This document shows positions 12,720 to 64,000 of a DNA stretch of 64,000 bases, in pieces. The position numbers and the translations under genes were made by a program. Positions within the stretch are counted from its first letter, which is position 1. The number at the start of each line of letters is the position of its first letter. The notes beneath the pieces were generated by a model. It did no database searches. It was not told where the DNA came from and saw nothing but the letters and a program-made list of their open reading frames with translations. The stretch is from an uncultured Acidobacteriota bacterium (lineage in GTDB: Bacteria; Acidobacteriota; Vicinamibacteria; Vicinamibacterales; UBA2999). The stretch covers positions 449,783 to 513,782 of the forward strand of contig CAVTMO010000007.1 of assembly GCA_963735875.1 (NCBI GenBank). The letters run 5' to 3'.

Positions 12720-14985
12720 GCCGATACCCCCATTCCGCGCTGACCAACGCCAGCAGGAGCACCAGCATCAGCGGCGCGTTCCACAGCTCGCGTTCCTCCA
12801 CCGCGGTGATCCCGCGGCCGGTGTACTTCACGTCCTCGAGGAGTGCGCTGGCGGTGGCGGGAGTGTAGGCCTTGCCGCCGGTGTCCTCGGCGATGCGGCG
12901 CAGCGCGGCCATCTGCAGCGTGGTCTCGGCGAACTCGGCGTCGCCGGGCCCGGCGTTGACGTGCAGGGTGGAGCTTCCGAGCGAGGTCCCGCCGCGCATC
13001 GCTTCCACCCGGGCCTCGTACCAGCCGGCGGCGCTGGTCGTGAGGGTGCCCGAGTAGGCGCCGTCGCGCTGTCCGTTCCAGGTCAGCGGCACCGTCGCGG
13101 TGGCGCCGTCGGGCCCAGACACCGTGGCGGTGACCTGCGCGTCGTTGATGGCGACAAACGACGGGTCGGCGACCTCGACGGTGAGGGTGACCGGCTCGCC
13201 GGGCTCCACGCGATCGACCGACGCCGAGGCGTCCACCGGATCGGGCACGCCGTCGACCAGCCAGCGCAGCAGCTGGCGGGTGAACGTCTCGTGGGTCTGG
13301 TCCTCGACGCTGATCGACGCGTGCATCTGCCACAGCCAGGAGTCCTGCGGCGTGAAGGCCGCCGACTTGCCCCGGCCGAAGCGCTGGAAGGCGAGCACCG
13401 GGCGGTCGCGGCGGGCGTCGTCGGCCGCACTGAGCAGCGTCGTCGCGCCCGACTTCACGGCGCCGACGCCGTTCACCGTGGTGAGCTCGGGCAGCTCGGC
13501 CCAGCGCGCCGCCGAGGCTTGATCGGTGGCGGCAATCTGCGACACCGCGTGGCCCGACCCGGCGCGCGTCGGGCGGACGGTCAGCCGGGTGACCACCGGC
13601 TCGGCCGGCGGCGTCATCCGCTCGAGCTGCACCGGCAGCGTGTCGCCGAGCGCGGTGCCGGCGTAGCCGCCCTCGCTGAACGAGCGCGGGCCGCCCAGCA
13701 TCAGCAGCCCGCCGCCGCGCTTGTCGACGAACTCGCTCAGCATCGCCAGCTGGTCGCCGGTGAAAGCGGCGGCCTCGATCGAGCCCAGCACCAGGCCGCG
13801 GTACTGGAAGAGCTCGTCGCGCGTCTTCGGGAAGCCGCCGACCAGCTCCTCTGGGTCGTCGACCTCGAGGCGCAGGTACTTGTTGTCGGCGGTGCGCTGC
13901 AGCACCACCAGCTGGAGCTGTTTGTCGTCGGTGAGCGCGCGCCGCAGGAACTTCATCTCGAAGCGCGGCTCGCCCTCGAAGTAGAGGATTTTCTCGCGGC
14001 GATCGCGCACGTCGACCAGCACGTCGCGGGTGTTGTTCTCCGGCAGCAGCTCGCCCGGCTGCGCCGGCACCCGGAAGCTGAAGACGCGCGGTCCGGGGTC
14101 GGAGGCCGTGAAGCGGACCCGCACCGTGGCCGGCTGGCCGTCGGGCGCCACCGTGAAGGCCTGGCTGCCGACGATGGCGCCGCTGTCGAGGACGTCGAGC
14201 GTCAGCGACTGTCCGGCGTAGCCGTGCCCGGTCACCACCGCGTCGAGCAGGAGCGTGGTGCCGGCGAGCACGGTCCGCGGCGCGGTGACGCGGCCCACCT
14301 GGATGTCCCGCTCGGCCGTTTCGCTGCCGACGCCGATGGCGAAGACCGGCACCCCCGAGGCCTTCAGCGCCAGCAGCGACGGCTCGAGCGCGCTGCCGCT
14401 GGTGTCGGCGCCGTCGCTGACCACGACCAGGCCGGCCAGTGGCACCCCGGCCAGCTGCTGCCGGGCCTGGTCGAGGGCCGAGACGAGCCGGGTGCTGGTG
14501 CCCGCAAAGTTGAGGTCTTCTCCGGTGGGCGCGGCGCCCAGACCGTTGGCGAAGCGCAGGGTGCGCACCGTGAAGCGTTCGCCGAGCGCCTGGCGCAGGC
14601 CGCGATCGGCGGCGCCGAACTCCTCCTGCACGTAGCTGCTTCGCGGCTGGCCGTTCAGGTCGGCAATCCGCATGCTCCGCGAGTCGTCGAGCAGGATGCC
14701 GATGACGTTCTGATGCGGCACCGCCGCCCGCAGCACCAGCATCGGCCGGAACAGACAGACCAGCAGGAGTCCGACCAGCGCCGCGCGCAGGGCGGTGAGG
14801 ACGACGCGGTCGCGGGCGGTGAGGCGCCGCGGCGCCCGCTGATAGGCGACGGTCGCCACCGCCACCGCGCCCAGGCCGGCCAGAACGGCGAACCACATGC
14901 CCGGCGGCGCAGCGAAGCGCAGCTCCCCCTGGTCGAAGACGACCCAGCGGACGCCGAGAAGGAGTTGCGACAACCAGTCGAGCAC
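12700..14985 (-). CDS. Membrane-anchored VWA domain protein with GATase1-like (DUF1355-type) domain and C-terminal TM helix
   Basis: VWA MIDAS ILLDDSRSM and VVVSDGADT. GATase-like segment GGGLLMLGGPRSF. C-terminal TM LMLVLLLALVSAEWGY. Start assigned to GTG 14985 (VLDWLSQLLLG...). ATG 14898 or ATG 15183 are alternatives; 15183 would leave only 5 bp before the divergent gene start at 15189. Confidence 0.65.
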   Translation of the reverse strand: MLDWLSQLLLGVRWVVFDQGELRFAAPPGMWFAVLAGLGAVAVATVAYQRAPRRLTARDRVVLTALRAALVGLLLVCLFRPMLVLRAAVPHQNVIGILLDDSRSMRIADLNGQPRSSYVQEEFGAADRGLRQALGERFTVRTLRFANGLGAAPTGEDLNFAGTSTRLVSALDQARQQLAGVPLAGLVVVSDGADTSGSALEPSLLALKASGVPVFAIGVGSETAERDIQVGRVTAPRTVLAGTTLLLDAVVTGHGYAGQSLTLDVLDSGAIVGSQAFTVAPDGQPATVRVRFTASDPGPRVFSFRVPAQPGELLPENNTRDVLVDVRDRREKILYFEGEPRFEMKFLRRALTDDKQLQLVVLQRTADNKYLRLEVDDPEELVGGFPKTRDELFQYRGLVLGSIEAAAFTGDQLAMLSEFVDKRGGGLLMLGGPRSFSEGGYAGTALGDTLPVQLERMTPPAEPVVTRLTVRPTRAGSGHAVSQIAATDQASAARWAELPELTTVNGVGAVKSGATTLLSAADDARRDRPVLAFQRFGRGKSAAFTPQDSWLWQMHASISVEDQTHETFTRQLLRWLVDGVPDPVDASASVDRVEPGEPVTLTVEVADPSFVAINDAQVTATVSGPDGATATVPLTWNGQRDGAYSGTLTTSAAGWYEARVEAMRGGTSLGSSTLHVNAGPGDAEFAETTLQMAALRRIAEDTGGKAYTPATASALLEDVKYTGRGITAVEERELWNAPLMLVLLLALVSAEWGYRRAVGLS

Positions 14986-15188
14986 GGCACGCACCGCGCG
15001 GCGTGGACCTTCGCAAGCCCACCCGGTGTTGGCGATTCTATGTCGGTTCGACGACCCGGCGGGCGTGGCGGCCGGGCGCCATGGGATTGGACCCGGCGGA
15101 TTCCCGCCGCCTGTCCCCGGGAACGGTGGCCAGACCTCCGGCCCCGCGCTGCTATTCTTCCCAGCGTCGGACCCGGAGGCCACCCATC

Positions 15189-16958
15189 ATGCGAACGTCC
15201 GTGCTCTGTCTCGCCGTCCTCGCCACTGCCGCCGGGCTGGCGTCCTGGCCCGGCGCCGTCCAGCCGCGCGCCCAGGCGCCGGCCGACCTGGTCCTCCTCA
15301 ACGGGACGGTCATCACGGTGAACCCGTCGGATGCCATCGCCCAAGCGGTGGCCATCACCGGCGGACGCATCGCCGCCGTCGGGACGACCGCCGACCTCAA
15401 GGCGCGGGTGGGGCCGGCCACGCAGGTGATCGACCTGGGCGGCCGCGCCGTCACTCCGGGGCTCATCGACACCCATATCCACTTCACCGAGGTCGACCAG
15501 CTGTTCAGCATCGACCTGAGCGACCCGGCCATCAAGGCGATGAACGACGTGGTATCGCGGGTGGCCGCACAGGTGGCGAAGACCAAGCCCGGGGAATGGG
15601 TGCTCGGCGATGGCTGGGACGAGGGCAAGCTGGCCGAGCGGCGGCACATCCTCGCCGCCGACCTCGACGCCGTGTCGCCGAACAATCCGGTGTGGCTGGG
15701 CAACACCACCGGGCACTACGGCGTCGGCAACACCTACGCGTTGAAGATCGCCGAGATCCGGAAGGGCACGCCCGACCCGCCGGCGGGCACCATCGTCCAC
15801 GACGCGAAGGGCGAGCCCAACGGCGTGGTGCTCGAGAGCGCCCAGCAGCTCATCACCCGCCACGCCCCGCCGTTCACCCGCGAGCAGCAGAAGGCCGGGC
15901 TGGTGAAGATGATCCAGGACTTCAGCTCTGAGGGGATGACCGGCGCCAAGGATCCCGGGATCGGCGAGCTGAAGTGGACGCTCTACAACGAGCTGCTGAA
16001 GGAAGGGAAGCTCGACGTCCGAATCTTCGCGTTGTGGGCCGGGCCGCGCCGGCTCGACCAGGCCGCCGCCGTCCAGGCGCGCGTCAACGCCAACCCGCGG
16101 CCCCCGCAATCGCTGGGCGACGGCCGGCTCTTCTCCGGCGGCGTGAAGATGTACATGGACGGCAGCGGCGGCGCCCGCACCGCGTGGATGCACGAGGACT
16201 GGAACAAGAACCTGAAGGACGTCGACAAGGGCAACCCCGGCTACCCCGCGACGCCGCCCGACGAGTACCGCAAGATGGCCACCGACTTCCACAATGCCGG
16301 CGTGCACGTGAGCACGCATGCGATCGGCGATCGGGCCATCGACTGGGTGGTGGACACCTACGCGCAGGCGCTCAAGGCCAAGCCCGTCAAGGGCCTGCGC
16401 CACGGCCTCATCCACGCCAACACGCCCACCGACCGCGCCATCGACGAGATGGCCCGGATGCAGCGCGACTACGACGCCGCCTATCCCGAAGCCTCCGCCG
16501 GCTTCATGTGGTGGATCGGCGACAACTACGCCGGCAACTTCGGCCCGGTGCGCAACCTGCGGATGAAGCCGCTGGCCACGTGGCAGAAGAAGGGCGTGCG
16601 CTGGAGCGGCGGTTCGGACTTCTCGGTGACGCCGTATGCCGCCCGCTACGGCCTGTGGGCGTCGGTGGCCCGCGAGACGCTGAACGGCACCTACGGCAAG
16701 ACGCCGTTCGGCACGGCCGAAGCGGTGGACATCCGCACCGCGCTGAAGTCCTACACCATCTGGGCGGCGCATCAGATGTTCCTCGACAATCGGATCGGCT
16801 CGGTCGAGGTCGGCAAGGACGCCGACCTCGCCGTCTGGGACCGGAACCCGTACACGGTGCCGACGGCCGAGTTGCGCGAGATGAAGGCCGAGCTCACCCT
16901 GCTGGCCGGACGCGTGGTCCATCGCGGCGCCGCGTTCCCGGTTCGGCCAGGACGGTAG
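15189..16958 (+). CDS. Secreted amidohydrolase (Amidohydro_3-type metal-dependent hydrolase)
   Basis: GGAGG lies 10 nt upstream of the ATG at 15189. Signal peptide MRTSVLCLAVLATAAGLA. Metal motif GLIDTHIHF. GGSDFSVTP near the C-terminus. Confidence 0.8.
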   Translation: MRTSVLCLAVLATAAGLASWPGAVQPRAQAPADLVLLNGTVITVNPSDAIAQAVAITGGRIAAVGTTADLKARVGPATQVIDLGGRAVTPGLIDTHIHFTEVDQLFSIDLSDPAIKAMNDVVSRVAAQVAKTKPGEWVLGDGWDEGKLAERRHILAADLDAVSPNNPVWLGNTTGHYGVGNTYALKIAEIRKGTPDPPAGTIVHDAKGEPNGVVLESAQQLITRHAPPFTREQQKAGLVKMIQDFSSEGMTGAKDPGIGELKWTLYNELLKEGKLDVRIFALWAGPRRLDQAAAVQARVNANPRPPQSLGDGRLFSGGVKMYMDGSGGARTAWMHEDWNKNLKDVDKGNPGYPATPPDEYRKMATDFHNAGVHVSTHAIGDRAIDWVVDTYAQALKAKPVKGLRHGLIHANTPTDRAIDEMARMQRDYDAAYPEASAGFMWWIGDNYAGNFGPVRNLRMKPLATWQKKGVRWSGGSDFSVTPYAARYGLWASVARETLNGTYGKTPFGTAEAVDIRTALKSYTIWAAHQMFLDNRIGSVEVGKDADLAVWDRNPYTVPTAELREMKAELTLLAGRVVHRGAAFPVRPGR

Positions 16959-54346: not shown

Positions 54347-54350
54347 TCCG

Positions 54351-54560
54351 CCGGGCGTCGCGCGCCGTCCGCAGCATCGCCTCCATCGGCGGCACGTCGG
54401 TCGCGTCGGCCGCGGCGAGGAACATCGCGGTGGTGGCCACGACGGTGGGCCACGTAGCCCGTCGTCACCGCGCTCACCTTGTCGATGGTGTCGAGGTTGG
54501 TGAGGCCAAGTCGATCGCGTCGAACACACCCGCCACGCCGAAGTGAGCGTGCGGAGGGTG
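54351..54560 (-). pseudogene. Remnant of the 3' part of an M28-peptidase paralog
   Basis: 54351-54502 aligns to 58458-58608 with about 8 substitutions and one 1-nt indel (manual alignment). Further weak protein-level similarity (HAHFGVAGV versus HTSFTKAGV) extends to about 54560. Confidence 0.7.
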
Positions 54561-54585: not shown

Positions 54586-54594
54586 CCGCGCGTG

Positions 54595-56352
54595 ATGGCA
54601 CTCGACGACACGCGCCGCCGCTTCCTCGCCACTTGCACAAGCCTCGGACTTGGCGGCACGCTGGCCCCTGGTGTCCTCTGGGCACGCCTGCAGGACGCCG
54701 GCACCGACCGGGTCACGCTGGCGATGGTCACCGAGGCCCTGGCGCTTTCGGGCATCGAGCTCGCTGAAGAAGATCGCCAGGCCCTGGTCGACAGCGCCAA
54801 CACCAACCTCGAGCGGCTCGAGGAACTGCGCGCGCTGCACATTCCCAACGACGTCTCGCCGCCGTATCACTTCAGCCCCGTCGTGCCGGGGATGACCGTG
54901 GACAAGGCGCGGCGCCCGTGGGTGATGAGCAAGGCCCCAGGACTGCGACGCCCGGCCAACCTCGAGGAGGCGGCCTTCTGGCCGGTGCGGCACCTGGCCG
55001 AGCTCGTCCGCACGAAGCAGGTGACGTCGGTGGAGCTGACGCGCATGTTCCTGGCGCGCCTCCATCGCTTCAATGCCCGGCTGAACAACGTCGTCACGTT
55101 CCTCGACGACCACGGACTGGCCGAAGCGGCCAGCGCCGATCGCGAGATCGCTGCCGGACGCTACAAGGGCCCGCTGCACGGCATCCCCTGGGGCTGCAAG
55201 GACATCATCACGGTCAAGGGCTTCAAGACCACGTGGGGATCGCCGGCCTTCGCCACGCAGCAGTTCGACTACGACGCCAGCGTGGTGGAGATGCTGCGCG
55301 ACGCCGGCGCCGTGCTCATCGCCAAGCTCGCCAGCGGAGAGCTCGCGGCCGGTGACAACTGGTTCGGCGGCCAGACCAAGAGCCCATGGGACCCCACCCA
55401 GGGCTCCAGCGGATCGTCGGCAGGACCGGCGTCGGCGACCGCTGCCGGCGGCGTGGCCTTCGCGATTGGCAGCGAGACGAGCGGATCGATCCTGAGCCCC
55501 GCCGCCCGGTGCGGGGTGGTCGGCCTGCGCCCGACCTTCGGCCGCATCAGCCGCCACGGCGCGATGGCGCTGTCGTGGACGCAGGATCGGCTGGGGCCGT
55601 TCTGCCGCCACGCCGAGGACTGCGCGCTGGTGATGCAGGCGGTCGCCAAACCCGACGGCCGCGACATGAGCGTGACCGACCTGCCCTTCAACTGGAACGC
55701 CGGTCTCGACGTACGCACGTTGCGCGTGGGCGTCCTCCAGGCGTCGTTCGACGAGCTCACCGAGCCGGCGGCGAAGGCCAATGCGGCGGCGACGCTCGAG
55801 GCGCTGCGAGCGCTCGGCGTGAAGGACTTCGCGCCCGTGCCGGTAGCGGACTTCACGCTCGACGTCAGCGCCATCGGCGTGGAGTCGGCGGCCTTCTTCG
55901 ACGAGCACGCACGCGCCGGCCGCATGGCCAAGGCGCGCAACGGCGGACGTCCCAGCGGTCGGCTCGTGTCGGCAGTGGACTTTCTGCAGGCGCAGCGCGC
56001 GCGGATGATGATGATGGAGGAGCTTGCGAAAGCCACTGCGCACGTGGACGTCTACGTCGTCGCCTCGAACAGCATCGGTCGAGGCGGGCCGGGTGGTCCG
56101 CCGGCGCGTGCGCCGGGCACCCCGCGTCCGCCGCGGCTCCCGCAGCCCCCTGGTCAGCGGCACTTCCAGATGGCCAACCTGGCGTGCTACCCGGCCGTGA
56201 ACGTGCCGAACGGCTTCACCGACGGCGGGACGCCGACGAGCATCGTGTTCTACGCGCAGCCATACCGCGAGCTGGAACTGCTGGCGCTGGCGCGCGCTTA
56301 TCAGGACGCCGCCAAATGGCACACGCGCCGGCCCGCGGCGCTCGCCCCCTGA
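54595..56352 (+). CDS. Amidase-signature family amidase with Tat signal
   Basis: TRRRFLATCTSLGLGG twin-arginine signal. GIPWGCKDII (catalytic Lys region). GSSGSSAG...GSETSGSIL signature. Confidence 0.85.
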   Translation: MALDDTRRRFLATCTSLGLGGTLAPGVLWARLQDAGTDRVTLAMVTEALALSGIELAEEDRQALVDSANTNLERLEELRALHIPNDVSPPYHFSPVVPGMTVDKARRPWVMSKAPGLRRPANLEEAAFWPVRHLAELVRTKQVTSVELTRMFLARLHRFNARLNNVVTFLDDHGLAEAASADREIAAGRYKGPLHGIPWGCKDIITVKGFKTTWGSPAFATQQFDYDASVVEMLRDAGAVLIAKLASGELAAGDNWFGGQTKSPWDPTQGSSGSSAGPASATAAGGVAFAIGSETSGSILSPAARCGVVGLRPTFGRISRHGAMALSWTQDRLGPFCRHAEDCALVMQAVAKPDGRDMSVTDLPFNWNAGLDVRTLRVGVLQASFDELTEPAAKANAAATLEALRALGVKDFAPVPVADFTLDVSAIGVESAAFFDEHARAGRMAKARNGGRPSGRLVSAVDFLQAQRARMMMMEELAKATAHVDVYVVASNSIGRGGPGGPPARAPGTPRPPRLPQPPGQRHFQMANLACYPAVNVPNGFTDGGTPTSIVFYAQPYRELELLALARAYQDAAKWHTRRPAALAP

Positions 56353-56478
56353 GCACGTGGCCGCGACCGCAACGGCGGCCGCCGCGGCTTCCTGGTGTCC
56401 CTCGACCCAAGGCGGCGGCCGGCGTGTTGCAGGCCCGCCGGCGGACGTCGCGGTCGTGCCCGGAGAGCGCTAGAGGCA

Positions 56479-56889
56479 TCACTCGACAGTCTTGCCAGCA
56501 CTTGGTTGTATTAGATCCCACTGGTTCCCGTGCAGATCGTGAAACACTGCCACCGTCCCGTAGTCTTCTGTCTTCGGCTCTCGGATGACTTTGACTCCTT
56601 TGGACTTGTACGCATTGAAGTCACGCCCGAAGTCGTCTGTGTACAGGAAGAGGAAGACTCTTCCGCCCGTTTGGTCACCGACGCGGGTAGCCTGATGCTC
56701 GGTTGAAGCCCGAGCCAAGAGCAGTGCGGACTCAGTTGCACCGGGTGGCGACACGACGACCCATCTCTCGTCCTGAGCTGGTTGGTACGTGTCCTCAATC
56801 AGCGAGAAGCCGAGCTTCCCGACATAAAACGCCAACGCTTCGTCCTAGTCACGCACGACGGCACGCGTCTCGGCATTTGTCAGTTGCAT
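56479..56889 (-). pseudogene. VOC/glyoxalase-family protein interrupted by an in-frame TAG at codon 15
   Basis: The minus-strand translation reads MQLTNAETRAVVRD*DEALAFYVGKLGF, with TAG at 56847-56845. The rest is a typical glyoxalase fold sequence. Local GC is far below the window average. Confidence 0.7.
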
Positions 56890-56909
56890 CCGTTGATGCA
56901 GCCCGGTTG

Positions 56910-57356
56910 TCAGGGCAACTGTTCTCTGAGGTGCGGGCGGCAGAACGGCCATGCGCCAAGTACCAGCAATAGGCCACCTACAACAATGAATACGAGGGTC
57001 ACGGAAAAGCCGGCCAGGAAATGCGGCAGAGTATAAGGTTCGCCCTCGAAGAACAATCCATACACAATCCTCACCGCAAATAGCGCGACAAACGCAAATA
57101 CAGGGAGCAGTGCGGACAAGATGCGCTCGAGGACTGAACCCTTCATTCGGCGGGACCAATTTGCGGCGAGGGCGCCGACGAATGGCAGCACCAGATATGG
57201 GATGGCCATGAACTGGAATCTGTTCTTGTCAAAAGGCAACCAGATGAGCACGAAATAGAATCCGAAAAACAACAGACAGGATGCTGCTCCAGGCAACCAC
57301 ACCTTCTTGATATGCAAGTCCATGGAAGGTCTCTTCTGACTCACTGACTTCGGCAC
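56910..57356 (-). CDS. Hypothetical 4-TM membrane protein (low-GC islet)
   Basis: Four hydrophobic helices (AASCLLFFGFYFVLIWL, IPYLVLPFVGALAA, LLPVFAFVALFAVRIVY, FSVTLVFIVVGGLLLVLG). No recognised family. Confidence 0.5.
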   Translation of the reverse strand: MPKSVSQKRPSMDLHIKKVWLPGAASCLLFFGFYFVLIWLPFDKNRFQFMAIPYLVLPFVGALAANWSRRMKGSVLERILSALLPVFAFVALFAVRIVYGLFFEGEPYTLPHFLAGFSVTLVFIVVGGLLLVLGAWPFCRPHLREQLP

Positions 57357-57404
57357 AACGGGCCGCCAGAATTGCGCCCGATAAGGCTGACCCCCTTCAC
57401 TGTC

Positions 57405-57542
57405 TCACCGCGCAGGTGCAGCGCGCGGATCGGTCCACGGCCGGCCGCGCCCGTCCGGGCGACGGCGAGGACGGAACGTCGGTTCGAGCACGGCCCACTG
57501 GGCGGCGGTCAGGTCCATGCCGTCGAGTACGACGGCGATCAT
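57405..57542 (-). mobile_element. Truncated N-terminal remnant of an IS5-family (DUF4096-type) transposase
   Basis: The minus-strand translation MIAVVLDGMDLTAAQWAVLEPTFRPRRRPDGRGRPWTDPRA matches the conserved LTDxQWxxIEPLxP...GRPRxxDR N-terminal motif. It stops after 41 codons and no DDE domain follows. Confidence 0.6.
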
Positions 57543-57583
57543 ACCGATGTTTCAGGCGGCTTCCGTATTTATGAGACAGCTTC

Positions 57584-58262
57584 TTAGGCTTCGGGCGTCG
57601 CTGCCGGTCGCTGAACGACTTGGTGTTCCATCGTGTCCAATTCCAGGACGATGGCGCGTTCGCGGCCGGCCGATGCCACATTGAAATGCGACCCCTGCCG
57701 CCCGAACCCTGCGTGGCTGTGGCCGTGGATGTGCGCCCGAACCGGACGACGTTCGAGCAGGTCGCGGAGCGACCGACTACCAATTCGCGTTCCTTCCACG
57801 CCGGGATCGAGAATTCCGAGTGCCGGTGAGTGCGATACGAACACCGTCTCACGGTCCATCAGCGCCTCAATTGCCGCCACATCGGCCTCGATGCCGGCTT
57901 CGGGCTTCTCGAATGGCCCGCCCATGAACGGAAGCGAGTACCTGATAGCCGACGAAAGAATACTGCCCTAATTGGGTCCGCCGGCCGTGGATGGATTGAA
58001 CGTGCCGGTACGCTGAGTTGAGCTCGACGAGATCGTCATTCCCCATGATGTAGAGAACAGGCAAACCTGCACCGGCGAGGAACTCAGACAGGAGGCGAGC
58101 CTCATGCTCCTGAGCGGCCTCCGGTGTCGCAAACCCGTCTGGACACCCGAATAGATCGCCGGCGAGAATGATGGCTTCGACGTGGTGCTCGGATGCCGCG
58201 CGAACAAGCCACTCATAGACTGGGTGCCTGCCGTGCAAGTCGCCTGATGCAAGCACTCTCAT
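57584..58262 (-). pseudogene. Small metallophosphoesterase (YfcE/MJ0936-like), one frameshift near 57930-57960
   Basis: The N-terminal frame has MRVLASGDLHG, ILAGDLFG and IMGNDD. The C-terminal frame has VFVSHSP and AHIHGHSH. The two ORFs overlap between 57867 and 57925. Confidence 0.65.
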
Positions 58263-58346
58263 CTCGGACTACTCCCGCCGCTCGGTCGACTCATCGAAGC
58301 GGTGATGAGGTGGTTCGTCCGGCCCAGCCATGCCGGACGCCCGATC

Positions 58347-59958
58347 CTAACGTGCCGGTCCCGCAAGGCGCTGGACACTTGCCGTGGCCTGTTCGTACCA
58401 CTCCCGCCACGCGTCCATCACCTCGGCGGGCGCGGTGTTGGCGCGCTCGGTCTCGAGCCGGGCGTCGCGCGCTGCCCGCAGCATCGCCTCCATCGGCGCC
58501 ACGTCGGTCGCGTCGGCGGCGGCGAGGAACATCGCGGTGGTGGCCACGACGGTGGCCACATGGCCCATCGTCACCGCGCTCACCTTGTCGATGGTGTCGA
58601 GATTGGTGTGGTAGTAGCGGTCGGTGAAGTGCCAGTTCAGAAGCGCCGGCACGCCGGCCTTGGTGAACGACGTGTGATCGCTGCCTCCCTCGTAGGGGTT
58701 CGTGCGCACCACCCAGCCGGTGTCGCGGGCGCGTCGCAGCGCCACCCCCAGGTGCAGGTCGTTCAGGAAGTTGCCGCGGAGCATCGAGCGCGGCACCTCA
58801 CTGGCCCCCCACTCGCTGTGCGGATCCGAGGGCCGCGCCCACACCGCGGTGGGGTCGGGGCTCTTCTCGATGAGGAACGTGCCGCCGGTCTTGGCCGTGT
58901 CTTCGCCGGTCATGTCGAGCGACATCATCGCCAGCACCCGGCTGACACGGCCGGGATCCGCGGCGATCCACGCGTCGCTGGCCCGGATTTCGTCGCCCCA
59001 GAGCATGCGTCAGCGTCCGCGCCGGCCGCGGCATCGCCCCGGTGGCCAGCGCCTGCCGGATGGCGAGCGCCGCGGCCAGCAGCGTGCCGCTGCCGCTGGC
59101 GTTGTCGTTGGCACCCGGTTCCTGCACGTGGGCGACCAGCACGACATGATCGTCGGGCCAGCGGGTGCCGGGAAACTCGGCCACCAGCGTCCGCACGGGC
59201 CGGCGGTGGAAGACCGTGTCGGCGGTGACGTGCACGCGCACCGGACCGGCGGCCAGCCGGTTGCGCAGCCGCTTTGCCGCCCGCGGCGTGGCCTTGAAGG
59301 CGAATGACGGCCGGTCGGCGGCGTAGGGGATGTTGCCCCACTGCAGCACGCCCGGCGTGGTGTCGGGCCGCGTGTAGGGCGCGATCTGGGTCGAGATGAC
59401 CCCGGCCGCGCCGTGCGCCTTGACCGCCTGGTTCCAGACGGCCACGAGCGGGCCATCGGCGAGCACCACGGCGCCGCTCACGGACTTCCCCGCGTAGCTC
59501 GCCGCGTCAGTGCCCGCGCCCACGTCCACCAGCGTGGCAGTCGTGCCGCCCGCCGGTGTCGGGAACGAGTTGATGGCCAGTGCCACGCGGTCCTGTTCGC
59601 GCGAGAGCACCACTTCGCCGGCCGGCCCGTCGAGCCGCAGCTCCGCGTCGCGCATCTCCCAGCCCTGGCTGGGCGACGAGATCGTGTCGTAGCGCGTGGC
59701 GATGCCCGCGGCCTTCAGCGAGGCGTCGATCCACTCGAGTGACTGATCGAACTGCGGGTTGCCGGCCAGCCGCCACAGCGGCGCCATTTTCGTGACCAGC
59801 GCCATGGCGGCGTCGCGGTCGACGCGGGGTTCGACCGCGCGGTAAATCGTCTCGACCCGCGGCGGCAGCGCGCGATCGAGCGGCGGCAGATGCGGTAGTG
59901 CCGCCTGGGCAACCAGCACGACACTGATCAGGGCCGCGATGCCGCCGCCGATGCGCAT
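58347..59958 (-). pseudogene. M28-family peptidase with PA domain, one frameshift near 59005
   Basis: The N-terminal ORF ends ...HVQEPGANDNASGSGTLLAAALAIRQ...RPARTLT. The C-terminal ORF continues MLWGDEIRA...GGSDHTSFTKAGVP. The junction context GACGCATG is not a homopolymer. Confidence 0.65.
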
Positions 59959-60020
59959 GGCCGGATCATATGCTGCGCCGACGGCAGCCGATCCTGTCGA
60001 CGCGCTGCGATCCGGCCCGA

Positions 60021-60926
60021 TCAGGCCGGGGCGTAGTCCTGATCGTTCTGCCGGACCGAGCGGCCGAGGGCGCGACGGACGGTGTTGCGCGCCACGGCGT
60101 AACCGGACAGCACGGCGGCTTTCATCCCGTCGCGGCCCGGCGACTCGCCGACCGGCGTCGGCTCGATGCCGAGGCGGCGCAGCTTCGCGTTGCCGCGATA
60201 GAGCAACTCGCGCCGACGCGTCGCGTCGGTGTAGTAGGTGAAGCTGATGGTGACCGACGGCTCGGGGCCGACCTCGACCAGGTGCGGCGCCGTCGACGGC
60301 ATGTAACCGCCGTCGCCCGGCTTGAGATCGAAGACGTGGGCGCGGGACCGCCAGTCCTCGTTCCAGGTGATGAGCTCACGCGAGTGGGCGTCGTGGAACA
60401 TCTCCTGCGCCCGCTCCGAGATGACCGTGCGATCGAACGGATCCCAGACATACAGGCGCTTGGTCCCGCGGATCTGCAGGATGAAGTTGTGCTCGTGATC
60501 CATGTGGAACGGCGTGACCGCCTTCGGCGACGACACGAAGATCCAGCCGGCGCGATAGCACATGCCCGGATCGCGGTGTTCGACCACCGGGCGGACTTCG
60601 TTGAGGATCTCGTCGATGAAGGCGCGGTAGATCGGATCCGCCTGCACGTTGAGCAGCGACATCCAGGCCCGCGCTTCGGCGATGCCCGCCAGCGTCGCGA
60701 CCGCACCGGCGGTGTTCGGATGCAGGTTCGGCGCGTCGGCGAAGCTGGTGCCCGCCGTGGCATCGGCGGTGTGCGTGCGCACGAGTTTGCGCTCCTGCTG
60801 GCGCTTGCCCAGTTCGACCAGCGATTCGATCTGCAGGAGCGGGTGATCGGACAGCGCGTGCGTGACCGCCTGAACGCGCCACGGTTCGAACGTCGCCGGT
60901 TCGACATGGATGCGGGGCGCTGACAT
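60021..60926 (-). CDS. JmjC/cupin-like Fe(II)/2-oxoglutarate-dependent oxygenase
   Basis: TPFHMDHEHNF provides an HxD facial-triad candidate, with a distal His in STAPHLVE. The overall cupin_4/JmjC-like pattern includes ILQIRGTKRLYVW. Confidence 0.6.
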   Translation of the reverse strand: MSAPRIHVEPATFEPWRVQAVTHALSDHPLLQIESLVELGKRQQERKLVRTHTADATAGTSFADAPNLHPNTAGAVATLAGIAEARAWMSLLNVQADPIYRAFIDEILNEVRPVVEHRDPGMCYRAGWIFVSSPKAVTPFHMDHEHNFILQIRGTKRLYVWDPFDRTVISERAQEMFHDAHSRELITWNEDWRSRAHVFDLKPGDGGYMPSTAPHLVEVGPEPSVTISFTYYTDATRRRELLYRGNAKLRRLGIEPTPVGESPGRDGMKAAVLSGYAVARNTVRRALGRSVRQNDQDYAPA

Positions 60927-60951
60927 ATCCCTTCATGATATACGAACCAGC

Positions 60952-61761
60952 GTGGGCCTGATCGACTTCGGTCGGCGAGTGTCGCGAAACGCATGGCGTC
61001 TCCCGGTGGTGGGCCGTGTGCTCGAGGCCGATTACGAACGGTCGTTCGCGCGGCGGCCGCCAAACTGCTTTCGCGGCGTCTACGCGACGTTCGCCGAAGC
61101 CGAAGCCTCGATTCCGCCGGGAGCGCGGGTCGGCTACGACCACGCCGAACTGGCCGGCCTCTACCGCCACCGCATGGAACGGGCCAACCAGAGCGACTAC
61201 GCGGTGCTGTTCTGGCTCAAGGGCCTCCTCGACGAGCGCTCGTTCGTGTTCGATTTCGGCGGTCACGTCGGGGTCAGCTACCACGGCTGGCGCAGCTATC
61301 TCGACTACAAGCCGGGCCTGCGCTGGCTGGTGCACGACCTGCCGGCGATCGTCAAGGTCGGCGCCGAACTTGCCCGCGAACGGCCCAGTGCCGGGCTGGA
61401 GTTCACCAGCACGATCGGCGACGCGCGCGGCTGCACGATCCTGCTTTCGGCCGGTGCGCTGCAGTACGTCGACCTGTCACTGACTCAGCTGCTCACCGAG
61501 GTCGGCTCGCAGCCCCGGCACCTCATCGTCAACAAGTTGCCGGTCTACGACGGCGAGCCGTTCGTCACCGTGCAGTCGACCGGCCGCGCCTTCCATCCGT
61601 ACCGCATCTACAATCGCGCCGCCTTCGTCGCCGAGGCGGCCGCGCTCGGCTATCGGGTCGTCGACGAATGGCAGAATCGCGAACAGCACTGCGAGATTCC
61701 GTTCGCGGTCGGCCGCGACATCGACGCCTACAGCGGCTACTACTTCGTGCGCAGCGAGTAG
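60952..61761 (+). CDS. SAM-dependent methyltransferase-like protein (resembles the LIC12133/TIGR04325 type)
   Basis: FRGVYATFAEAEASIPPGARVGYDH and VFDFGGHVG resemble that family (judged from memory). The start is uncertain: GTG 60952, or ATG 60910, which would overlap the divergent gene start by 17 nt. Confidence 0.5.
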   Translation: MGLIDFGRRVSRNAWRLPVVGRVLEADYERSFARRPPNCFRGVYATFAEAEASIPPGARVGYDHAELAGLYRHRMERANQSDYAVLFWLKGLLDERSFVFDFGGHVGVSYHGWRSYLDYKPGLRWLVHDLPAIVKVGAELARERPSAGLEFTSTIGDARGCTILLSAGALQYVDLSLTQLLTEVGSQPRHLIVNKLPVYDGEPFVTVQSTGRAFHPYRIYNRAAFVAEAAALGYRVVDEWQNREQHCEIPFAVGRDIDAYSGYYFVRSE

Positions 61762-63176
61762 ATCTCGCCTTCGGGCCCGGCGTGGACCCGCGTGGCATTG
61801 ACAGCGAGCCAGCCGGCCAGGTCGCCGTCGATCGGCTTCTGCGTGACGTGGACGTAGAACGTCGCGCCACGCCGCGCCACCTCGGCCAGCCGGTCGGCGC
61901 CGGCCAGGTCGTTCGGCAGCACCCACCCCCTGGTGCGCGACACGTAGAACACGCGCGGGTCCTCGTAGTTGTTCACGGTCTGCCACTCGGTGTTGAAGCC
62001 CTCGGCGCGGGCGCGGACGGCGACCAGCGTGCCCGGCGGCGCCAGCTGCGCCAGCGCCTCACCGAGGATGGTCTCGCGCTGCGGCGGCAGGTCGAGGAAA
62101 CGCAGGGCCCGGCCACCCATCACCAGCGCCAGGCCGGCGCAGGCCATCACCAGCGCACCGCGCCGCTTCTGGAGCGCCGCGGCGACCAGCCAGGCGCCGA
62201 GCACGACGTGCGGCAGGTGATAGTGCGTGCCGAACGAGCCCGAGGTGTAGCGAAGCGTGACCACCGCCAGCAGCAGCGCACCGGCGGCCAGCGCCAGGTG
62301 CACCGGCTGCCACCGCCACTGCCACGCCAGCACGAGCCCGGCCGGGATCGCCGCCGCCCCCACGCCCCAGACGATCGAGTAACGCGCCAGTTCGGTCCAC
62401 GTCGACGGCTGGATCAGCATCGCCGTGGCGGGCAGCTTGCTGTCGCCGCCGCTCAAAACGCCGAAGGTGTTGCCGTAGTCGACATAGAGCGTCCGCGCGT
62501 GGGCCATGAAGCCGGCGACGATCGCGATCACGATCGCCCAGCCAACCCAGATTCTCCGGTCGCGATACCGTCCGGTCAGGACGACCAGCACGAACTGTGC
62601 GATCCCCAGTTCGAGCGTCGTCGGCTTGACCAGGCCCGCGACCGTGGTGGCGCCGACCCACAGGACGAGCCGCCGGGTCGAGGGCGCGTCGAGATAGTCG
62701 AGGAAGGCGACGAACCCGACGGCGAAGGCGAGGAACGACAGCGCATCGGGCTGAATCGCGGTCGCCATGGCGATCGTGCCCTGATGCCCGAGTGTCAGCA
62801 GGAAGGCGCCGCACGCCGCCGGCTCGCCGAATCGCCGCGCCAGCGCCAGGCCGACGACGATCAACCCGGTGGCGACACAGGACAGCGACAGCAGCTGGGC
62901 CGGCCACACGCTCTCGCCGACGACCCGCATTGCCATCGCCGAGAGCATCGGGTAGAGCTGCGCCTCCGTCTCGACGTAGCCGGGGCCGTCGCCGCGCCAG
63001 TCGATGCGTGGCCACAGCGGCGCGAACTCCTCGAACGCCAGGTTGCGCGCGATCGCCTGGGTGTCGGCCTGGCGCCAGCCCTGCCAGTCGTCGGTAATCG
63101 CCTCGGTGCGGCGGACCAGCAGCATCACTGCGCACCAGGCGAGCAGCGCTGCGATCGCCGTGACCCGGTAGATCAC
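61740..63176 (-). CDS. Polytopic membrane protein, GT-C fold glycosyltransferase-like (ArnT/PMT-like)
   Basis: More than 10 TM helices and an N-terminal loop WRQADTQAIARNLAFEEF. The C-terminal soluble domain is about 110 aa. The GTG start overlaps the NRPS stop as GTGA. Confidence 0.5.
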   Translation of the reverse strand: MIYRVTAIAALLAWCAVMLLVRRTEAITDDWQGWRQADTQAIARNLAFEEFAPLWPRIDWRGDGPGYVETEAQLYPMLSAMAMRVVGESVWPAQLLSLSCVATGLIVVGLALARRFGEPAACGAFLLTLGHQGTIAMATAIQPDALSFLAFAVGFVAFLDYLDAPSTRRLVLWVGATTVAGLVKPTTLELGIAQFVLVVLTGRYRDRRIWVGWAIVIAIVAGFMAHARTLYVDYGNTFGVLSGGDSKLPATAMLIQPSTWTELARYSIVWGVGAAAIPAGLVLAWQWRWQPVHLALAAGALLLAVVTLRYTSGSFGTHYHLPHVVLGAWLVAAALQKRRGALVMACAGLALVMGGRALRFLDLPPQRETILGEALAQLAPPGTLVAVRARAEGFNTEWQTVNNYEDPRVFYVSRTRGWVLPNDLAGADRLAEVARRGATFYVHVTQKPIDGDLAGWLAVNATRVHAGPEGEIYSLRTK

Positions 63177-64000
63177 GGCCTCGCGCCAGGCGTCAGCGCC
63201 GACAGCAAACGCTGCAGCCGCGACGGCGGCGGCGCCGTCAGCGGCGGCGGCTCAAGCGGCGTGGCGTCGTACTCCTTGGCGATCTGCTCGAGGGTCTGGA
63301 AGATGAAGGCGCGCGGGCTGATGCGCTTGCCGGTGTGGGCGTCGAGCTTGGCGATGGCCTGCATGATCAGCAGCGAGTGGCCGCCGAGGTCGAGGAAGTT
63401 GTCGGCGGCCGAGATGTGATCGATGCCGAGCAGCTCACGCCACACCGTGGCGACGACGTGTTCCGCATGCGTGTTCGGGGCCCGGGACGACCGCGACGGC
63501 TCGGACGGCGCGGCCTCGGGCGCCGGCAGCCCCCGGCGATCGACCTTGCCGTTCGGCGTCAACGGCAACGCGTCGATGGTGACAAACACCGCCGGCACCA
63601 TGTAGTCCGGCAGTGAGGCGCGCAAATGCTCGCGTAACGCCTGGGCCGGTGGCGCACTGCCGCGGGCGACGACGTAGGCGACCAGACGATGCTCGCCGCC
63701 CGGTCCTGGCGACGCGACCACGCACGCCTCGGCGACCTGCGCGTGGCCGGCGAGCGCGACCTCGATCTCGCCGAGCTCGATGCGATAGCCACGCACCTTG
63801 ACCTGGAAGTCGGTGCGGCCCAGGTGCACCAGCGAACCGTCGGCGCGCCAGCGGGCCAGGTCGCCGGTTCGGTACAAGCGCGCGCCGGGCCGGCCGGAGA
63901 AGGTGTCGGCGACGAAACGCTCAGCGGTCAGCGCCGGCCGGTTGTGATACCCGAGCGCAACGCCGGCGCCGCCGATATACAGCTCGCCCGGTCCACCGAG
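63173..64000 (-). CDS. 3' end of a nonribosomal peptide synthetase-type gene: adenylation domain C-terminus plus PCP (5' end lies outside the window)
   Basis: Motifs GELYIGGAGVALGY (A7), GRTDFQVKVRGYRIELGEIE (A8), LPLTPNGKVDR (A10) and the PCP motif FLDLGGHSL. The protein ends about 55 aa after the PCP serine with no TE, R or C domain. Confidence 0.85.
   Translation of the reverse strand, partial: LGGPGELYIGGAGVALGYHNRPALTAERFVADTFSGRPGARLYRTGDLARWRADGSLVHLGRTDFQVKVRGYRIELGEIEVALAGHAQVAEACVVASPGPGGEHRLVAYVVARGSAPPAQALREHLRASLPDYMVPAVFVTIDALPLTPNGKVDRRGLPAPEAAPSEPSRSSRAPNTHAEHVVATVWRELLGIDHISAADNFLDLGGHSLLIMQAIAKLDAHTGKRISPRAFIFQTLEQIAKEYDATPLEPPPLTAPPPSRLQRLLSALTPGARP

Follow-up and report, generated by a model that had tools for sequence, protein, structure and literature searches.

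What happens to the product of a nonribosomal peptide synthetase (NRPS) which has no release domain at its end, and whose stop codon overlaps the start codon of an integral membrane protein? This arrangement is found at the end of the stretch of DNA analyzed here (64,000 nucleotides of contig CAVTMO010000007.1, the window in what follows). The original prediction, made from the letters alone, took it for a didomain of adenylation (A) and peptidyl carrier protein (PCP) domains, which would hand its acyl or aminoacyl group directly to a membrane transferase, in the manner of D-alanylation by the Dlt proteins. It also warned that the NRPS gene could be seen at its 3' end only, a caveat which was correct and turned out to be decisive. 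Judging from near-identical and orthologous contigs, this "A-PCP" is the end of one megasynthase of about 4,570 amino acids, a hybrid of polyketide synthase (PKS) and NRPS. The window most likely holds the downstream end of a biosynthetic operon conserved, according to sequence comparisons, in uncultured Myxococcota (Kofleriaceae/Haliangiales-like). The pathway most likely yields a small sugar-decorated peptide, rather than a new kind of cell-wall aminoacylation.

The G+C content of the window is about 70%, which makes the raw list of open reading frames (ORFs) noisy. Genes were therefore picked by frame analysis of the G+C content at third codon positions (GC3) together with translation, and four real genes are supported at the terminal end. 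They code for the A-PCP end of the synthetase, a membrane protein of the GT-C type, a TIGR04325 methyltransferase and a JmjC-type oxygenase, so the domain calls of the original prediction are borne out. The synthetase gene is cut by the window edge (63173..64000, minus strand; Pfam, NCBIfam), and its best NCBIfam matches are NRPS modules. All its features lie on the minus strand: the C-terminal subdomain of the last A domain (63545-63769; AMP-binding_C, 62.7 bits) and the PCP (63275-63457; PP-binding, 44.2 bits), with the phosphopantetheinyl serine in the motif LGGHSL (63374-63376). Only 33 amino acids remain after the PCP, a Pro-rich linker with a basic amphipathic tail, SRLQRLLSAL (63176-63274). 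Pfam detects no thioesterase (TE), reductase (R) or terminal condensation (C) domain after the last PCP, as had been noted from the letters, and the same is true of the orthologue in locus L060 described below. The stop codon TGA (63173-63175, minus strand) shares the sequence GTGA (63173-63176, minus strand; AGG CCG TGA with GTG ATC) with the start codon of the membrane protein gene. The predicted translational coupling is thus confirmed.

The window covers only the last 275 codons of the synthetase, the upstream part being read from relatives with 80–99.5% identity. The closest of these relatives, L001, is a metagenome contig from the European Nucleotide Archive (ENA), found via the JmjC protein. 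It is 99.5% identical to window positions 54603-64000 and reaches 6.9 kb beyond them; an exact-sequence look-up of the GT-C and methyltransferase proteins of the window gave no match. L001 carries single-base indels, and several of the supporting contigs are indel-ridden long-read assemblies. GC3 tracking and Pfam searches on all forward frames of L001 reveal one continuous coding region, with the order class III aminotransferase (AMT)-C-A-T-C-A-T-stop, where T (thiolation) stands for a carrier domain. A stand-alone A-PCP protein was considered and rejected: What is called in L001 as a "701-aa A-PCP protein", together with an antisense ORF of 441 amino acids and an AMT-C protein of 933, corresponds to one frameshift-broken gene, which is intact in Illumina metagenome-assembled genomes (MAGs). 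What had been described as an A-PCP didomain system appears instead as the last module of a much larger enzyme. In the Kofleriaceae MAG L060 the intact orthologue is a single protein of 4,574 amino acids. Its readable 3,333 residues correspond to linker-AT-ACP-AMT-C-A-T-C-A-T (Pfam; AT, acyltransferase; ACP, acyl carrier protein), and the precomputed Pfam list adds AMP-binding, PP-binding and ketosynthase (KS) domains at the N-terminus. The predicted full order is A-T-KS-AT-ACP-AMT-C-A-T-C-A-T. Ketoreductase (KR), dehydratase and enoylreductase domains are all absent from it. The module order KS-(AT)-ACP-AMT-C is present in both L060 and L001 (Pfam), and the nearest sequence relatives of the AMT-PKS segment are AMT-PKS proteins of the Nostoc and Lysobacter type. 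Homologue searches with megasynthase segments found fragments only, no full-length orthologues, and L066 shows nothing of the upstream part.

The specificity codes of the A domains allow a prediction of the product. The loading A domain of L065 passes the amino-acid adenylation model TIGR01733 (416 bits, cut-off 317). The code of the loader is DALW[L/I/Y/F]GGTFK in L065, L062, L012 and L064, identical in 8 of 10 positions to the canonical valine code DAFWIGGTFK, while in L063 and L021 it is the threonine code DFWNIGMVHK. A fatty-acyl-AMP ligase as loader, and a "lipopeptide" as product, were rejected on the basis of the NCBIfam scan and of these codes. Both elongation A domains have glycine codes, DILQLGMVWK or DILQLGLVWK, in L001 and in nearly all loci which match the strict motif pattern. 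This code is also found in the elongation A domains of Ignavibacteriaceae. A prediction of A-domain specificity had been proposed as a check on the original prediction, and it gives glycine (DILQLGMVWK). The strict pattern for these Stachelhaus codes missed several of the first A domains (A1), and the A1 strings of L060 and L007 are unreliable and were not used. If the starter is valine, the predicted intermediate is 3,4-diamino-5-methylhexanoyl-Gly-Gly-S-PCP. The domain order and the glycine codes are seen directly, the starter and the structure of the product are deduced from them and should be considered as probable.

The second gene codes for a polytopic integral membrane protein of 478 amino acids (61740..63176, minus strand), whose match to PMT_2 is a marginal pass (27.5 bits, gathering threshold 26.1; Pfam). 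Its homologues have precomputed PF13231 matches, and their existing labels are "GT family 39" or "ArnT-like" at best. The family has 245 detectable members of about 480–500 amino acids, almost all of them from Myxococcota MAGs. A one-nucleotide indel between the window and L001, at window position 61760, alters the ends of both the GT-C and the methyltransferase genes, and the GT-C ORF has 566 amino acids in L001. The lengths of the homologues favour the 478-aa reading of the window over the 566-aa one, a frameshift artefact. An AlphaFold2 (AF2) model based on 32 homologues (pLDDT 90.3, pTM 0.90) has a transmembrane (TM) module of about 360 amino acids followed by a C-terminal α/β domain (61743-62096, minus strand). 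The top 38 Foldseek matches in the PDB are all GT-C enzymes. The best one is ArnT (5ezm, E 2e-8, TMq 0.66), followed by ALG12/ALG9, AftD, PglB, STT3, PMT and EmbA/B/C. According to the model, the membrane protein is a GT-C-fold protein: When GT-C was weighed against other folds, the structural comparison and the PMT_2 match agreed with what had been suspected from the sequence. A profile of the 32 homologues shows no sequence-level likeness to the PDB sequences of solved structures, and no NCBIfam model of the ArnT family proper is matched.

The family alignment is very conserved in the first loop (62958-63116, minus strand), which contains RR, D29-D30, GWRQADT and RIDWRGDGPGYVE. Directly after the first TM segment (TM1), D29 is conserved in at least 90% of the sequences, D30 is invariant, and so is the GWRQADT which comes next. 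Further invariant residues are found in two short motifs, QPD and KPT, as well as in a long loop with GNTFGVLSGGDSK, in RY...HYH and, within the C-terminal α/β domain, in WxTxNNxEDPR. The acidic and basic ones among them are grouped in the loops. If the orientation is taken from the fold, the conserved acidic loop would face the periplasm. GT-C enzymes are active on the outer side of the membrane, on polyprenyl-phosphate-linked sugars, and by analogy the sugar donor of this protein would be of the same kind.

The link between the two genes is not limited to the window. A scan at one genome per species gave 58 loci, in which the confirmed homologues are essentially all from MAGs; flank content was determined by local tblastn. 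The taxon labels of some of these MAGs are implausible. For example, the record of L022 is labelled "Klebsiella pneumoniae" though its G+C content is 42%, and that of L065 "Pseudoxanthomonas sp." though it is 80% identical to a Kofleriaceae gene, both probably binning errors. Of 25 related loci, about 19 have an exact 4-nt overlap (ATGA, GTGA or TTGA) between the NRPS stop and the GT-C start, and in most of the remaining ones the gap is 26 nt or less. In this count the choice of frame or start by our script is unreliable for L002, L003 and L006. Gene calls made independently for L060, L061 and L064 show the identical 4-nt overlap. Since about 19 of the 25 loci keep it, the overlap is not due to chance.

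All homologues with about 52–80% identity and available upstream sequence, more than 20 loci, present the order AMT-C-A-T-C-A-T followed by GT-C, with the exception of L012. The same order is found in two uncultured bins (L025 and L027) and in a noisy contig labelled Acidobacteriota. The conservation of the NRPS and membrane-protein pair in other genomes, which had been suggested as a test, is therefore found wherever the upstream sequence of a close homologue can be read, L012 apart. Clustering of all flanking ORFs gives just three families which are kept downstream: GT-C, methyltransferase and JmjC oxygenase. Other gene orders appear around more distant members. In L022 (31–45% identity) a metallo-β-lactamase (MBL)-fold gene and the GT-C gene are followed by A-T-KS-AT; in L031, in the same identity range, the GT-C gene is followed by A-MT-T (MT, methyltransferase domain) and then by a gene with an AMT match. 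The exception L012 (54% identity) has GT4, GT-C, Wzy_C, GT4, a β-helix protein and a methyltransferase, and then A-T-KS-AT. On the other hand, no NRPS or AMT query match was found within ±10 kb in L028–L030, L033–L035, L037, L040–L044 and L047 (31–40% identity). The adjacency in close homologues and its recurrence in other gene orders make the functional link between the GT-C family and such PKS-NRPS assembly lines robust. The alternative set against the original prediction combined a multimodular assembly line with separate release and a membrane protein which is not co-conserved. Its first part stands, as a multimodular line with separate hydrolases is found; its second part does not, as the membrane protein is co-conserved with this line.

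As to the release of the peptide, two different solutions are suggested by related loci. In the Ignavibacteriaceae loci L026 and L046 the last synthetase is A(Gly)-T-TE (PF00975, 88–91 bits), and the GT-C gene is still present downstream; in L026 a TylF-type O-methyltransferase lies between both. A synthetase with its own TE which keeps the GT-C gene places the role of GT-C downstream of release. In L064 and L065 two genes of the α/β-hydrolase fold are found directly before the megasynthase start, a divergent one of 279 amino acids and a co-directional one of 260–274. L064 is closely related to the window, with 80% identity between the two GT-C proteins and 89% between its amidase and that at window 54592-56352. 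The best families for this pair are the exosortase A system-associated hydrolases 1 (TIGR03100) and 2 (TIGR03101). The scores, 91.2 bits (cut-off 168.45) and 94.8 bits (cut-off 202.75), stay far under the curated cut-offs, so the hydrolases are only distant relatives of these families; no exosortase or PEP-CTERM genes were seen. The first hydrolase keeps GxCxG, Asp and the C-terminal His of a Cys-His-Asp triad. In the proteins similar to hydrolase 2 (L064 5812-6594, L065 769-1593, L062 22691-23527) the nucleophile elbow reads GLRLG, GMGLG and AMR-GSS, with neither Ser nor Cys conserved, and these proteins may be non-catalytic partners of the Cys-containing hydrolase.

Three sister clusters, L062, L063 and L067, have no GT-C gene. 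In these clusters the hydrolase pair is found directly after the NRPS, with a 4-nt overlap in L067. The presence of the pair at the coupled position indicates that the GT-C gene is a clade-specific addition. From this comparison of gene orders, the core partners of the megasynthase are the hydrolase pair and the Cupin_8 oxygenase(s), into which the GT-C gene was inserted in one clade, and we infer that the peptide is released in trans by the pair. The C-terminal tail of the NRPS is also conserved, with its Pro-rich linker and the sequence SRLRRWLSAL (hydrophobic moment about 0.6). It was considered as a docking signal for GT-C, and this idea was rejected: A similar tail is present in the clusters without GT-C. 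Two other details of these loci should be mentioned. Three to four Cupin_8 paralogues are found upstream in L067 (3961-8234, 430-2631, 24566-26027), flanked by HZS_alpha-like proteins. A gene of the β-lactamase/penicillin-binding protein (PBP) family (14964-16331, minus strand) and an ABC transporter adjoin the cluster in L025; PBP-type enzymes are known to serve as trans off-loading cyclases for NRPSs without TE.

The two remaining genes of the window code for possible tailoring enzymes. The S-adenosylmethionine (SAM) methyltransferase of 283 amino acids (60910..61761, plus strand; NCBIfam) matches TIGR04325 with 200.6 bits (cut-off 80) over profile positions 1–233 of 234. It is found beside the cluster in 21 loci, and no PDB relative of it was found. 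The Fe(II)/2-oxoglutarate (Fe/2OG) oxygenase of 301 amino acids (60021..60926, minus strand; Pfam) belongs to the Cupin_8/JmjC type (Cupin_8 38.5 bits, cut-off 27.4; JmjC_2 25.5 bits) and is conserved in 16 loci. In a weak alignment to FIH (2xum) its H141-M-D143 (H141-x-D143; 60498-60506, minus strand) falls on the HYD of FIH, and the distal His215 of the HxD...H triad is present (60282-60284, minus strand). The methyltransferase and GT-C genes are convergent, and their 3' ends overlap by 22 nt (61740-61761). As annotated, the divergent start codons of methyltransferase and oxygenase overlap by 17 nt (60910-60926), which leaves no intergenic promoter region; abutting or overlapping starts of both genes are likewise found in L002 and L015. 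Some genomes have insertions of 4–9 kb between the GT-C and methyltransferase genes. In L060 (11929-18528, equivalent to L017) the insertion codes for a pentapeptide-repeat protein and for a protein of 2,199 amino acids which has an eCIS_core domain, and insertions of 4–9 kb at the same site are also present in L007, L009 and L019.

Several observations concern the region next to the cluster. The M28 peptidase gene at window 58347-59958 (minus strand) is split into ORFs of 386 and 219 amino acids, and is intact in L001 (555 amino acids). The split is due to single-base indels, an extra C at window 59007 and a base lost near 58394, either an assembly error or a sign of a pseudogene. The G+C content falls to 0.62 between window positions 56000 and 58000, against about 0.70 elsewhere, and a small hydrophobic ORF of 148 amino acids without family match is found at 56910-57356 (minus strand; 137 amino acids in L001). 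Synteny between the window and L001 stops at position 54603 of the window. Close to this breakpoint, window 54350-54502 shares 94% identity with part of the M28 peptidase gene of L001 (12318-12469), which suggests that a paralogous or duplicated segment is present there. The amidase gene (window 54592-56352, plus strand) lies downstream of the cluster, while the 89% identical amidase of L064 (1808-3415) lies upstream of the whole cluster. From these positions, it seems that an inversion or a relocation has changed the place of the cluster with respect to the amidase.

The explanation which we favour, and hold as tentative, is that the operon makes a small peptide which is glycosylated outside the membrane, in a similar way to Ram29, after release by the hydrolases and tailoring by the oxygenase and the methyltransferase. 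In the cytoplasm, a valine-like amino acid would be loaded on the NRPS-type A-T, one malonyl unit would be added by KS-AT-ACP without KR, and the in-line aminotransferase would turn the β-keto group into an amine. Two glycines would then be added by the two C-A-T modules, and the Cys-hydrolase pair (TE in Ignavibacteriaceae) would free the peptide. The Fe/2OG oxygenase, possibly by making a hydroxyl, and the methyltransferase(s) would tailor the molecule. After export, the peptide would receive a sugar from the GT-C enzyme, with a polyprenyl-phosphate as donor. The GTGA overlap would secure co-expression and stoichiometry, not the hand-off of a substrate. The release enzyme, the sugar donor and the acceptor are the presumptive elements of this scheme. 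Several points weigh against it. No sugar-activating gene, polyprenyl-phosphate-sugar synthase or dedicated exporter is conserved in the clade, and a Wzx-like MOP flippase is found in L064 only. The predicted product lacks a hydroxyl group if none is introduced by the oxygenase. Some loci have a glycan-assembly context (Bac_transf in L062, GT4/Wzy_C in L012, Wza/Wzc and GT2 fragments in L063), which fits a decoration of the cell envelope as well or better. The likeness to Ram29 and Dbv20 is one of build and gene context, rather than of direct sequence comparison, and the upstream part of the operon, outside the window, is taken from relatives with 80–99.5% identity.

Decoration of the envelope is the main rival, and we consider it rather unlikely. 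It would be a hybrid of the Arn and Alm/Dlt systems: The cationic diamino-acyl-Gly-Gly, taken from the PCP or as the free acid, would be joined to a polyprenyl-phosphate-linked sugar or glycan by the Cys-hydrolase pair (in some lineages by an ATP-grasp ligase). The result would be flipped, and GT-C would set the sugar with its peptide on an envelope acceptor, for instance lipid A, a different lipid or a polysaccharide. The best families of the pair point in this direction, since exosortase A system-associated hydrolases 1 and 2, by their TIGRFAMs descriptions, go together with an acyl-CoA ligase and an ACP in exopolysaccharide (EPS) loci, and a Cys nucleophile favours transacylation. Glycan genes adjoin several variants: MOP/Wzx in L064, Bac_transf with ATP-grasp in L062, GT4-GT-C-Wzy_C-GT4 in L012, Wza/Wzc with GT2 at L063 and ATP-grasp/GNAT/HAD at L026. 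The best structural match, ArnT, installs a cationic sugar on lipid A, and AlmEFG of Vibrio adds glycine or diglycine to lipid A. This reading is weakened because no glycan-assembly gene is conserved in the clade, where only the GT-C, methyltransferase and oxygenase genes are kept downstream. Besides, the hydrolase scores are far under the curated cut-offs, the sister clusters keep the hydrolases without the GT-C gene, and neither an acceptor nor a donor can be identified. The same match to ArnT might point to self-protection, in which GT-C would leave the product untouched and remodel the envelope of the producer so that it tolerates a cationic compound. The predicted product is di-cationic, and the core cluster also exists without the GT-C gene, an accessory to it. 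We find this improbable: There is no sequence-level relation to ArnT and no Arn-type donor pathway nearby, and resistance genes are rarely tied by a 4-nt overlap to the last codon of a synthetase across so many genomes.

The direct hand-off of the original prediction, in which the membrane protein would take the group from the terminal PCP as an off-loading transferase, with GT-C in the place of DltB, is very improbable. The clade lacks a TE in cis, the 4-nt coupling of PCP end and GT-C start is conserved, and so is the basic amphipathic motif after the Pro-rich linker. Carrier proteins are also known to dock on the cytoplasmic face of AftD and EmbA/B/C, although the ACP bound to AftD is apparently regulatory and not a substrate donor (bioRxiv 10.1101/2019.12.22.885152). 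The conserved residues of GT-C are in loops which are extracytoplasmic in this fold, and the PCP is cytoplasmic; action at the outer face makes an acyl hand-off from it topologically unlikely. Two other points against the idea are the Ignavibacteriaceae, which keep the GT-C gene despite their TE in cis, and the conserved hydrolase pair, available for release in trans and found at the same coupled position in clusters without GT-C. These clusters have the amphipathic tail too, hence it is not a docking signal for GT-C. A different kind of contact is a long shot which we entertain by analogy with AcpM on AftD and Emb: The terminal PCP would bind the co-translated GT-C protein at its cytoplasmic face, and either gate the enzyme or deliver the diamino-acyl-Gly-Gly to a polyprenyl-phosphate-sugar in its lipid groove. 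If true, peptide synthesis and periplasmic glycosyl transfer would be physically coupled, a form of carrier-protein-coupled GT-C envelope decoration in many uncultured diderm bacteria. Least credible of all is that the GT-C gene is a mere passenger of the operon with an unrelated housekeeping role. The distant members (31–40% identity) without NRPS or AMT match within ±10 kb would agree with it, but the two genes are adjacent in every close homologue whose upstream side can be read, and this adjacency recurs in other gene orders and in several phyla, which argues against it.

In summary, the favoured glycosylated peptide would come from a compact and conserved cassette: A transaminating PKS-NRPS primed by an amino acid, a Cys-hydrolase pair, one or more JmjC oxygenases, a TIGR04325 methyltransferase and a GT-C protein. 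It is spread over dozens of uncultured Myxococcota, and a modified form is found in Ignavibacteriota and other phyla. We have found no paper on such a PKS-NRPS/GT-C cassette in the literature, which does not prove that there is none, and nothing relevant for TIGR04325 or for exosortase-type hydrolases. Each component is of a known kind; what is new is how they are combined, how widely this is spread over uncultured phyla and how strictly GT-C is coupled. If the product is a glycosylated diamino-peptide, it would represent a new class of small molecules, and the GT-C protein would be the first of its kind to tailor an NRPS product in organisms other than actinomycetes. If the envelope is decorated, a new system for changing the surface charge would be at hand, comparable to Arn, Alm and Dlt. 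The cassette also places two families without known function in a genomic context for the first time, and offers a role for them which can be tested: TIGR04325 and the proteins similar to exosortase-associated hydrolases 1 and 2.

How does this cassette compare with known systems? DltABCD and AlmEFG also have an adenylation enzyme and a carrier beside a membrane protein, and the glycine or diglycine chemistry of AlmEFG is shared with the Gly-Gly modules. Here, on the other hand, A and PCP are domains of a 4,570-aa megasynthase, not free-standing proteins, and the membrane partner has a GT-C fold, unlike the MBOAT protein DltB or the LPLAT protein AlmG; among the loci examined, neither an MBOAT nor an LPLAT was seen. 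The trans hydrolases find their best family in the exosortase A system-associated hydrolases 1 and 2, yet below the cut-offs, and their genes lie outside the window. In mycosubtilin/iturin synthetases (MycA) and in puwainaphycin a class III AMT also follows a PKS module without KR and precedes a C domain, which gives a β-amino acyl unit. Unlike them, the present megasynthase has an amino-acid adenylation loader, with valine-like or threonine codes, instead of a fatty-acyl ligase, only two glycine modules and no TE. In AftD-ACP, as well as EmbA/B/C-AcpM, a phosphopantetheinylated carrier is found on the cytoplasmic face of a GT-C enzyme (bioRxiv 10.1101/2019.12.22.885152). The carrier of AftD and Emb is a separate housekeeping ACP, apparently regulatory, whereas the contact between PCP and GT-C considered here is purely hypothetical. 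ArnT, the Und-P-L-Ara4N:lipid A transferase, is the best structural match and has about the same size and architecture, but there is no detectable sequence similarity and there are no arn donor genes.

On our best reading, the closest characterized analogues of the GT-C protein are Ram29, Dbv20, Tcp15 and MppH/I, GT-C mannosyltransferases in the NRPS clusters for ramoplanin, A40926, teicoplanin and mannopeptimycin, which act on the peptide outside the membrane (PMC4635501). Ram29 has a TM region and a C-terminal domain which is extracytoplasmic, and uses polyprenyl-phosphate-mannose as donor; its gene is present in the ramoplanin cluster and absent from the enduracidin cluster (PMC4635501). 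These enzymes belong to actinomycetes and act on large (lipo)glycopeptides, whereas the hosts of the present cassette are diderm Myxococcota and Ignavibacteriota, and the acceptor would be a tiny aminated polyketide-Gly-Gly. The 4-nt overlap which joins the GT-C gene to the last codon of the synthetase is another difference. The common features are nevertheless clear: In both cases a two-part GT-C enzyme is found inside an NRPS cluster, and is present or absent between sister clusters.

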